A stretch of 12,489 nt of DNA from a virus: UHGV virus genome UHGV-0192751. One strand, written 5' to 3'. Shown in pieces: positions 5,147 to 5,497 of the stretch. Below the pieces are notes generated by a model. The model was not told the DNA's origin, did not search any database, and was given only the letters and a program-made list of their open reading frames with translations. The number at the start of each line of letters is the position of its first letter. The stretch's first letter is position 1. Made by a program: the position numbers and the translations under genes.

Positions 5147-5497
5147 ATGGGTAAGGCCAAACTTCTAATTTGTGGTGTTCTTTTATCAGTTGTCGGCACG
5201 TCAGGGGCCTTAGCTGATACTCAGTGCGGGCCGTATCGCCTCACTGCGGGCAAAGAAGGACTAATGCTTATTAACGGGGTAAAACCTGAAACGCAAAAAA
5301 TGTCTTTTCTCAAGTCTAAAGATGACTACCAAAACATGAAAGCAGAATGGATGGTTGCAACCGACCAACCAGGTCGCTGGGTTGGGCTTGAGTACATCAA
5401 GCGCAACGGAAAAGCCATTCTCAACGCACAGTGGCTGCAAGCCAGCATGGATTCTCCGCGCCAGTATGCAACATACGACTGCGTGAAGGTTAAGTGA
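5147..5497 (+). CDS. Secreted (periplasmic) small protein of unknown function, accessory gene
   Basis: ATG at 5147, one base after the hub stop. N-terminus MGKAKLLICGVLLSVVGTSGALA-DTQ reads as a Sec signal peptide with an A-L-A cleavage site. The mature protein is about 94 aa with one Cys near each end (possible disulfide). The region looks more AT-rich than the flanks. The track's TTG start at 5087 was rejected. Confidence 0.6.
   Translation: MGKAKLLICGVLLSVVGTSGALADTQCGPYRLTAGKEGLMLINGVKPETQKMSFLKSKDDYQNMKAEWMVATDQPGRWVGLEYIKRNGKAILNAQWLQASMDSPRQYATYDCVKVK

Follow-up and report, generated by a model that had tools for sequence, protein, structure and literature searches.

Why does the tail module of a phage carry, between the genes for its baseplate hub and its spike, a gene for a small protein that seems destined for export? 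The question is raised by a stretch of 12,489 nucleotides (nt) from virus genome UHGV-0192751, hereafter the window, in which the gene occupies positions 5147–5497 of the + strand, stop codon included (coordinates below refer to the window and to its + strand unless another locus or strand is named). The window is the tail module of a temperate myovirus of the SEN34 type (Brunovirus-like). We call the gene the barrel gene, after the predicted fold of its product. Its position, its export signals and its pattern of variation mark it as an accessory gene that is reshuffled as part of a cassette, and our tentative answer to the question is that the protein could well be a periplasmic superinfection-exclusion or specificity factor in phage-versus-phage interference.

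The open reading frame (ORF) comprises 116 codons and a stop, and was recognized from the ORF call, its match to phrog_3443, the family alignment and an AlphaFold model. The precursor of 116 amino acids (aa) begins with MGKAKLLICGVLLSVVGTSGALA, continues with DTQCGPY and ends in YDCVKVK. Residues 1–23 (5147–5215) form a predicted signal peptide with an n-region charge of +2, a hydrophobic core (best 11-residue Kyte–Doolittle mean 3.05) and A-L-A at positions −3 to −1 of a predicted signal peptidase I site; cleavage after Ala23 is what the sequence rules lead us to expect. This assignment draws on hydropathy, a rule-based check of the relatives, the confidence score of the AlphaFold model (pLDDT) and column entropy. 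No lipobox of the form [LVI][ASTVI][GAS]C was found at the end of the signal peptide of the window protein, where Cys9 lies in L-L-I-C and is preceded by 8 residues only. The mature protein (5216–5494) has 93 aa, a mass of 10.6 kDa, an isoelectric point of 9.1 and exactly two cysteines, C27 (codon 5225–5227), which is its fourth residue, and C112 (codon 5480–5482), five residues from the C-terminus. The original prediction, made from the letters of the window, had proposed a Sec signal peptide with A-L-A, one cysteine near each end of the mature protein and a location inside the tail cluster. All three claims hold, the first as a prediction from the n-region, the core and the −3/−1 residues, and the last more precisely as a place between baseplate hub and spike. 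What had been missed are the main features of the gene, namely the β-barrel fold of its product, its strict synteny and its cassette-like hypervariability.

The AlphaFold model (pLDDT 84) is all-β and shows an eight-stranded meander β-barrel, in which residues 1–19 are unstructured with a pLDDT below 50. C27 lies on strand 1 and C112 on strand 8 of the model, and because these strands are neighbors in a closed meander barrel, a disulfide between C27 and C112 that closes the barrel is likely. Structure prediction followed by a Foldseek search had been put forward with the original prediction as a way of checking it. The first part gave the barrel, but the second gave no significant match in either BFVD or PDB, and on the model the fold class is clear, with no specific structural relative. 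The likeness to avidin and streptavidin, eight-stranded meander barrels of the calycin type, is one of fold class only; identity to them is 6–9%, the Foldseek E-values are not significant and nothing suggests biotin binding. A profile search of the PDB brought up avidin at E = 0.045 over 26 residues only, and homology beyond the fold class was not found.

The protein belongs to phrog_3443, a PHROG family without an assigned function (E = 2.8e-45, 153.7 bits; residues 6–116 against profile positions 5–114 of 115). A homolog with 76% aa identity at the identical position of an E. coli prophage carries the RefSeq label 'STY1065/STY2022 family phage-derived protein', which is a name without a function. 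A scan of this homolog against the NCBIfam release returned no matching hidden Markov model, so the name does not come from a model in that release. Relatives are numerous: a set of 5.8 billion proteins yields 77 cluster representatives (90% identity), every one from Enterobacterales, a set of 1.84 billion gives 60 at 50% identity, and IMG/VR contains at least 533 members. They are common among E. coli, Salmonella, Klebsiella, Citrobacter, Enterobacter, Serratia and Yersinia prophages. Alignments of 30 and of 69 members show both cysteines without exception. By the rule-based check, all 67 full-length members have a −3/−1 cleavage site just before a conserved xQCG, and a positively charged n-region and a hydrophobic core are each present in 66 of the 67, although by sequence the signal region is the most variable segment of the protein (2.4 bits per column). 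Conserved properties combined with free sequence drift are what one would expect of real signal peptides. Given the phrog_3443 match, the many relatives, the invariant cysteines and the retained signal features, the ORF is not a chance one. Scans of the protein against Pfam (E ≤ 0.1), NCBIfam and the PADLOC models of anti-phage defense (E ≤ 0.1) found no family, a profile search of all PDB sequences gave noise only, and the Pfam, NCBIfam and PDB searches revealed no similarity to known virulence factors. No functional data on the gene were found in the literature on STY1065 and SEN34.

To place the gene in its context, 115 related loci were collected from annotated phages, E. coli genomes, GTDB genomes, assemblies and IMG/VR, of which 113 contain a homolog. 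The 3′ end of the hub gene is directly upstream of the homolog in all 113, and in 108 of them the match begins at most 30 nt from the hub end; a larger gap is seen, among other cases, where the barrel forms the C-terminal domain of a ∼290-aa lipoprotein. The distance from the stop codon of the barrel gene to the spike start varies between 66 and 1718 nt (median 593). Always found after the hub and at a varying distance from the spike, the barrel gene is thus the fixed opening gene of a slot that otherwise varies in content. In the window its ATG lies one base 3′ of the hub stop codon (TAA, 5143–5145) with an AGG remnant of a Shine–Dalgarno sequence 6 nt upstream, a classic case of translational coupling. 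A fusion of hub and barrel by frameshifting or readthrough was considered and rejected, as the relative frame and overlap of the two genes vary by allele (1-nt gap, ATGA overlap or 4-nt overlap).

Several observations set the gene apart from the structural genes around it. Its GC content at third codon positions (GC3) is 0.50, against 0.61–0.63 in the series of tail genes that runs from tape measure to spike, overall GC drops to 0.41–0.50 in intervals spanning 5100–6300, and the gene stands at the head of a low-GC island with variable cargo and a terminator. When phage genomes were searched with the hub protein, 23 records had a hub of at least 52% identity, and 20 of these carry the family. 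Providencia phage PSTCR3, whose tail is a more distant one of the same type, keeps the gene order of the baseplate and has no member of the family; its hub runs directly into the spike, the two genes overlapping. In Hafnia phage yong1, a close relative also without the family, the slot holds an unrelated 136-aa ORF lacking a signal peptide (L032, 3622–4032), and in phage EKP1, another close relative without it, two unrelated small signal-peptide ORFs (L033, 3532–3774, 80 aa, Thr/Cys-rich and unannotated; 3799–4122, 107 aa with two cysteines). Since these three phages do without the barrel gene, a SEN34-type tail does not need it. Burkholderia phage BgManors32 has an opposite-strand ORF at the hub–spike junction, which is thus a place where accessory genes are generally inserted, several of them for exported proteins. 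As an aside, EKP1 is recorded as an 'Elizabethkingia' phage, yet its tail module is of typical enterobacterial make and its hub shares 52% identity with that of the window, which is odd for the stated host.

In the same slot, the barrel is also found fused behind a lipobox lipoprotein domain (L010, with LVTGC; P0079; P0101). The example from Enterobacter bugandensis (L010, 5404–6294; ∼290 aa) has Ala at +2 of its LVTGC lipobox and an N-domain of 190 aa, for which no Pfam, PHROG or PDB match was found, and it is followed by a second signal-peptide ORF of 128 aa (6314–6700). We also looked, in PHROG and Pfam, for a match of the barrel protein to a virion structural protein, which the original prediction had named as telling against it; no structural family, tail or baseplate components included, came up. 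Dispensability, export signals, invariant cysteines and lipobox-fused variants together make a role in the virion or in cytoplasmic assembly very unlikely. The gene is best read as an accessory, moron-like one for an exported protein.

The most telling result is the variability of the gene, which changes hands between phages far more often than do its tail-gene neighbors. The sheath initiator averages 98% pairwise identity among 22 E. coli-type modules, the hub body 96% and baseplate J 94%. The corresponding values are 68% for the whole barrel protein, 54% (53.6%) for its N-terminal part, 92% for its last 45 residues and 37% for the last 14 residues of the hub; the barrel gene is the most variable gene of the tail module. 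Alignment and sliding nucleotide identity divide the region into three. A 5′ recombination anchor within the hub gene (4996–5095), encoding AASIATDGVYIVKAIDYTGDTRGQAWYMDLMCFARG, is 98–100% nt-identical in E. coli-type modules. It is followed by a hypervariable cassette (5096–5345) that contains the last 13–16 hub codons, the signal peptide and barrel strands 1–5, i.e., the N-terminal two-thirds of the mature part. The remaining 3′ third of the barrel gene (5346–5497), which encodes strands 6–8 with the consensus QPGRWVGLEYIKRNGKAILNAQWLQASMDxPRQYATYDC, is conserved and, judging from sliding identity and the reassortment of end variants, is both functionally constrained and a second recombination anchor.

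The borders of the cassette are sharp, and its flanks show 94–100% nucleotide identity. Sliding nucleotide identity was calculated between the window and ten other modules, one of which (L001) has the window's own barrel allele and is 96–100% identical across the cassette. For the other nine, identity from 5096 to ∼5345 is mostly 42–74% with one bin at 28%, it is mostly 70–98% with one bin at 64% over 5346–5495, and it collapses past the stop codon. From the sharp changes at 5096 and ∼5345 we therefore conclude that the unit of exchange is the cassette between the two anchors. Across the mature part, column entropy has its maxima in strand 2 (1.9 bits) and in the loop between strands 2 and 3 together with strand 3 (1.3 bits), and it is lowest in strands 6–8 (0.4–0.6 bits). 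In total, 69 distinct barrel proteins are found in 111 loci. On a fine scale, each variant of the hub tail is paired with one signal-peptide and N-terminal allele, and the N-terminal alleles occur in varying combinations with the versions of the C-terminal end (DCVKVK, DCRKVK, DCKRVSN and others).

Cassettes can also be stacked. Pseudescherichia vulneris NBRC 102420 (L009, 1–2850; contig NZ_BBMZ01000043.1) has four in tandem, each made up of a copy of the hub anchor and a different barrel allele, with the spike gene next; the second allele has a premature stop. The array resembles those of orphan CdiA-CT/CdiI and Rhs-CT/immunity modules in its tandem 3′ fragments of the upstream gene, each standing before a different small-gene allele, and in a variable block whose start lies within the upstream gene, immediately 3′ of a conserved recombination anchor. 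Unlike in those systems, the variable part of the hub (∼13–16 residues) is too short for a toxin domain, the barrel protein is exported and has no toxin motif, and an array occurs only once among the 113 loci.

What could such a protein do? The original prediction had offered three roles, which were to block DNA entry by a superinfecting phage, to inhibit a lysozyme or transglycosylase, or to act on the host envelope. Superinfection exclusion is the best of the three, and the support for it is indirect, coming from location, export, hypervariability, stacking and lipoprotein variants. In the mechanism that we propose, the protein would be translated together with the hub and exported by Sec to the periplasm as a small eight-stranded β-barrel with a single disulfide. 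Strands 2–3 and the nearby loops in its N-terminal half would form a specificity-determining surface that is exchanged as a cassette, whereas the C-terminal half would stay constant. The barrel, or its lipoprotein-tethered variant, might then bind a component exposed by an incoming related phage, such as the tail tip, the spike or the tape measure, or alternatively a host envelope factor which that phage needs, and this binding would block penetration or DNA entry. We read the gene in terms of recognition between phages because its product is exported, is dispensable for the virion, is linked to the tail tip, has a surface that is shuffled between otherwise identical phages, can be stacked and can be lipid-anchored. 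The sequences and the model show the export signals, the fold, the synteny, the dispensability for this type of tail, the hypervariability and the cassette structure. The disulfide, the periplasmic residence, the exclusion function and the target of exclusion are all points that we infer.

A number of observations weigh against exclusion. Co-variation of the N-terminal part was examined with the N- and C-terminal parts of the tape measure, Dit, the plug, the hub, the spike, the sheath initiator and baseplate J, and only the adjacent hub tail was linked to it (Spearman rho 0.39). The barrel allele showed no co-variation with the spike (0.12), with the tape-measure C-domain (0.21) or with the fibers (rho ≤ 0.21), one and the same allele is found alongside either type of spike (246 or 212 aa) and alongside various tape measures and fibers, and none of the candidates was singled out as a partner. 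The hypervariability next to the anchor could in part reflect relaxed constraint and mosaicism and not selection, and alleles are stacked in just one of the 113 loci. The last difficulty concerns expression. Translation of the barrel is coupled to that of a late structural protein, and no convincing promoter was found for the gene itself; expression in the lysogen, which classical prophage exclusion requires, is therefore unproven. A weak sigma-70 promoter-like site (TTTATA-17-TATACT, 9/12 match) lies at 5015–5043, inside the hub anchor and 104 nt upstream of the barrel ATG. Its −10 element reads TA[TC]ACT in each of the 24 distinct nucleotide versions; the Thr codon there is ACT throughout, although neighboring synonymous sites vary. 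The number of promoter-like sites in the region is, however, not above the expectation from shuffling, and the site may be taken as a lead only. No terminator is found right after the barrel gene, the first being at 6256–6285, past the downstream cargo.

Among the alternatives to exclusion, a lysogenic-conversion or host-envelope factor that benefits the lysogen, in the manner of lambda Bor and Lom, is unlikely. Such a factor could affect stress tolerance, envelope permeability, sensitivity to colicins or antibiotics, or virulence. The moron-like composition and the accessory slot with its toxin–antitoxin and other cargo would fit, as would the restriction of the family to prophages of Enterobacterales, many of them from clinical E. 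coli, Salmonella and Klebsiella, and host-benefit morons are common (PMC3594210). A host-directed factor would not be expected to be linked to one tail position in 113 of 113 loci and coupled to the hub, however, a periplasmic site offers no exposure to host immunity that might explain the hypervariability, and the protein resembles no known virulence factor.

There is a similarly small chance that the protein serves the producing phage late in infection, either by masking receptors and envelope debris or by modulating the timing of lysis and the breakdown of the envelope. T5 Llp has been proposed to protect progeny from inactivation by receptor-bearing debris. Since in every allele the start codon either overlaps the hub stop or lies 1 nt past it, the protein is made late with the tail genes, and its near-universal presence in the enterobacterial clade (20 of 23 phage records) also agrees with a service to the phage itself. 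Yet the allele does not co-vary with fibers or receptor-binding modules, the lysis genes are located elsewhere, stacked alleles and lipoprotein fusions are hard to reconcile with a role in lysis timing, and the related phages yong1, EKP1 and PSTCR3 do without the gene.

A more specific and more speculative form of the exclusion idea, to which we give only a slim chance, is that the hub–spike slot is a polymorphic locus for the recognition of self and non-self, where each barrel allele would recognize an element of the incoming tail and abort penetration. The most economical candidate for this element is the C-terminal tail of the hub, 13–16 residues long and inherited in the same cassette. Recombination at the anchors would then swap alleles, and stacking as in P. 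vulneris would widen the exclusion spectrum, much like orphan CdiA-CT/CdiI modules. We did not adopt a 'lock-and-key' relation between hub tail and barrel as the favored reading, for their tight linkage is explained equally well by a distance of ∼40 bp within the cassette.

It is likewise quite improbable that the protein is a periplasmic inhibitor of a peptidoglycan-degrading enzyme, comparable to Ivy, MliC/PliC or Spackle, and directed at the SLT domain of its own tape measure, at the muralytic domain in the tail of a superinfecting phage, or at a host or animal lysozyme. Bacterial lysozyme inhibitors are mainly β-sheet proteins (PMC7677548), and the barrel protein is similar to them in that it is predicted to be small, periplasmic and all-β with a single disulfide; the window tape measure does have an SLT domain (residues 510–605), and Spackle provides a phage precedent for muralytic inhibition (PMC7677548). 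The inhibitor role is disfavored by the finding that an identical 122-aa allele occurs with an SLT tape measure (L016) and with tape measures that carry an 'RNNNPGN' domain (L017–L019), and by the phages Mulock and vB_EcoM-683R1, which have the family and no SLT. Searches for Ivy, MliC/PliC, PliI, PliG and Inh gave no Pfam match at E ≤ 0.1 and no PDB chain at E ≤ 10, and structures of lysozyme or metalloprotease inhibitors are not among the closest structural neighbors.

Finally, a virion or tail-assembly protein with an uncleaved N-terminus, such as a baseplate accessory protein or a hub chaperone, would account for the conserved hub–spike position and the tight linkage to the variable hub tail, but is highly improbable in view of the cleavage motif in 67 of 67 members and the other signal features in 66 each despite free sequence drift, the invariant cysteines, the lipobox-fused variants, the absence of the gene from the PSTCR3 tail of the same architecture and the lack of any structural PHROG or Pfam match.

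If the barrel protein is an exclusion factor, it has company. Envelope genes in tail clusters include lambda lom, cor of phi80, N15 and T1, and llp, which lies beside the T5 receptor-binding gene, and P1 Sim is a processed periplasmic exclusion protein. To call an envelope gene in a structural cluster unusual, as the original prediction did, was thus to overstate the case, for it belongs to a known class with HK97 gp15 as an example (PMC3594210). The closest functional analogy is Spackle (gp61.3) of T4, a periplasmic superinfection-exclusion protein with a cleaved signal and one disulfide that binds the gp5 tail-tip lysozyme in the periplasm (PMC7677548). The two proteins are alike in small size (75 aa mature for Spackle, 93 aa here), export signal and single disulfide. 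They differ in fold, Spackle being an α-helical bundle (PMC7677548) and the barrel protein all-β in the model, and the PDB profile search found no sequence similarity between them. Spackle, moreover, is encoded by an early gene in a lytic phage, and what it inhibits is a lysozyme domain, whereas the barrel gene is coupled to late tail genes of temperate phages and is not tied to one type of muralytic domain. HK97 gp15 is an exclusion moron encoded between the tail chaperone and tape measure genes, and its specificity maps to the incoming tail (PMC3594210). It resembles the barrel gene as an accessory, envelope-directed gene in a tail operon with a composition unlike that of its neighbors (PMC3594210), but it encodes an inner-membrane protein related to YebO and is not homologous. 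The exclusion lipoprotein Llp of T5, located at the inner leaflet of the outer membrane (PMC9586334), recalls the lipobox-fused variants; Llp and Cor are, however, lipoproteins that block FhuA, while the window protein has no lipobox and is not homologous to them. The only PHROG match of the barrel protein is phrog_3443, with no sign of homology to gp15, Llp or Cor. A further difference may be its presence in nearly all of its phage clade, 20 of 23 records, in place of a sporadic one, although PSTCR3, yong1 and EKP1 lack it.

The family itself is already catalogued, without a function, and exclusion genes in tail operons are of a known kind. New are the fold assignment, the recognition of an accessory exported protein strictly after the hub, the anchored cassette hypervariability, the four-allele array and the lipoprotein-fused forms. 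Should exclusion prove to be its function, the family would be a new and widespread group of periplasmic anti-phage proteins (at least 533 copies in IMG/VR), and would offer a simple β-barrel scaffold with a natural library of specificity alleles (69 proteins in 111 loci). It would also help to predict prophage-mediated resistance to therapeutic or competing temperate phages, and give a tractable system for the study of tail-tip recognition in the periplasm. Were self/non-self recognition to be the case, it would be a new exclusion family with a built-in, cassette-encoded specificity code. Whatever its function, the gene is a clean case of cassette exchange between conserved anchors within a structural operon, and the hub–spike junction is a hotspot for accessory genes such as toxin–antitoxin pairs, secreted proteins and other cargo.

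The cargo of the slot in the related loci includes Phd/Doc(Fic) toxin–antitoxin pairs, an opposite-strand DUF4236 gene, ORFs of 145, 116, 53 and 185 aa, and a second secreted protein. The Phd/YefM–Doc(Fic) pairs recur directly 3′ of the barrel gene in several E. coli and Salmonella prophages (L001, 8595–9415; L019, 6452–7272; L025, 6458–7053), which supports the view of the junction as a hotspot for defense or addiction genes. In the window the cargo consists of two overlapping ORFs (5579–6218), which were characterized by Pfam and PHROG searches and by comparison of the loci. The first (5579–5935, 118 aa, GC3 0.39) belongs to phrog_4293 and is zinc-ribbon-like with a CxxC...CxxC pattern. The second (5916–6218, 100 aa, GC3 0.49) combines a coiled coil with a transmembrane segment at the C-terminus; it matches PHROGs of unknown function best (phrog_3556, E = 5.9e-12), and it matches the 'hemolysin' family phrog_1193 weakly (E = 4e-4). 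The pair recurs only in L051 and L105, beside different barrel alleles, and is absent from L001–L031. Both ORFs lie outside the barrel family and assort independently of the barrel allele, and they may be a defense or abortive-infection pair. The accessory island is closed, just 5′ of the spike gene, by a strong hairpin that resembles an intrinsic terminator (6256–6285; 7-bp stem with 5 GC pairs, then a T run).

The module in the window starts with a tail assembly chaperone, the tape measure, a Dit-like protein, a Pam3-gp18-like plug, the hub and the barrel gene, continues after the latter with the two small ORFs, the terminator-like hairpin, a gpV-like spike and a 45-aa membrane ORF, and ends with the sheath initiator, baseplate J, wedge, fiber, fiber chaperone and a Gin-type invertase. 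The closest records are an E. coli ECONIH5 prophage, whose barrel protein is 97% identical, and Citrobacter phage Omnitron. The hub gene (4075–5145, 356 aa) matches the baseplate hub family phrog_196 at E = 9.8e-84 and E217_GP41 at E = 4.7e-06 with 26.5 bits, slightly below the Pfam gathering score of 27. A segment of the window hub (4896–4995, residues ∼275–307) is privately variable and reads SLGRIGTSVYNGNIESDTLPSKQQ, where most E. coli-type relatives have AQSPGRITETEENGNRVLTGTTSQ and L025 and L010 have a third version; nucleotide identity is 40–62% there and 84–100% elsewhere in the hub. This segment is not linked to the barrel allele, as L001 has the same allele together with the common hub segment.

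The spike gene (6293–7033), which forms the 3′ boundary of the accessory slot, encodes a gpV-like N-domain (PF18352, E = 7.8e-41) and an Apex motif (E = 5.4e-08). Between it and the sheath initiator lies the 45-aa ORF with its transmembrane segment (7121–7258; phrog_6632, E = 3e-21), which is present in 12 loci including SEN34 and absent from other modules that are otherwise 97–99% identical, making it a second small present-or-absent membrane gene in the baseplate cluster. The tape measure gene (1148–3163) encodes the C-terminal SLT lytic transglycosylase domain (E = 1.3e-24), and this muralytic part is modular. SLT is present in the window (2670–3163) and in many relatives, other tape measures have an unrelated domain of ∼150 aa with an 'RNNNPGNI' motif and no Pfam match (L017, 2003–4006; L028; L004; L005), and the last ∼35 residues are common to both types. 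At the other end of the module, relatives have 3′ of the fiber and its chaperone an inverted alternative pair of fiber tip and chaperone, followed by the Gin-type invertase. The window has an unrelated 117-aa ORF with a weak YjcQ match there instead (11449–11802, − strand), and its invertase ORF (11987–12406, + strand) is only 139 aa long. The recombinase of the ECONIH5 relative is annotated as frameshifted, and the fiber-switching segment of the window may be degenerate.

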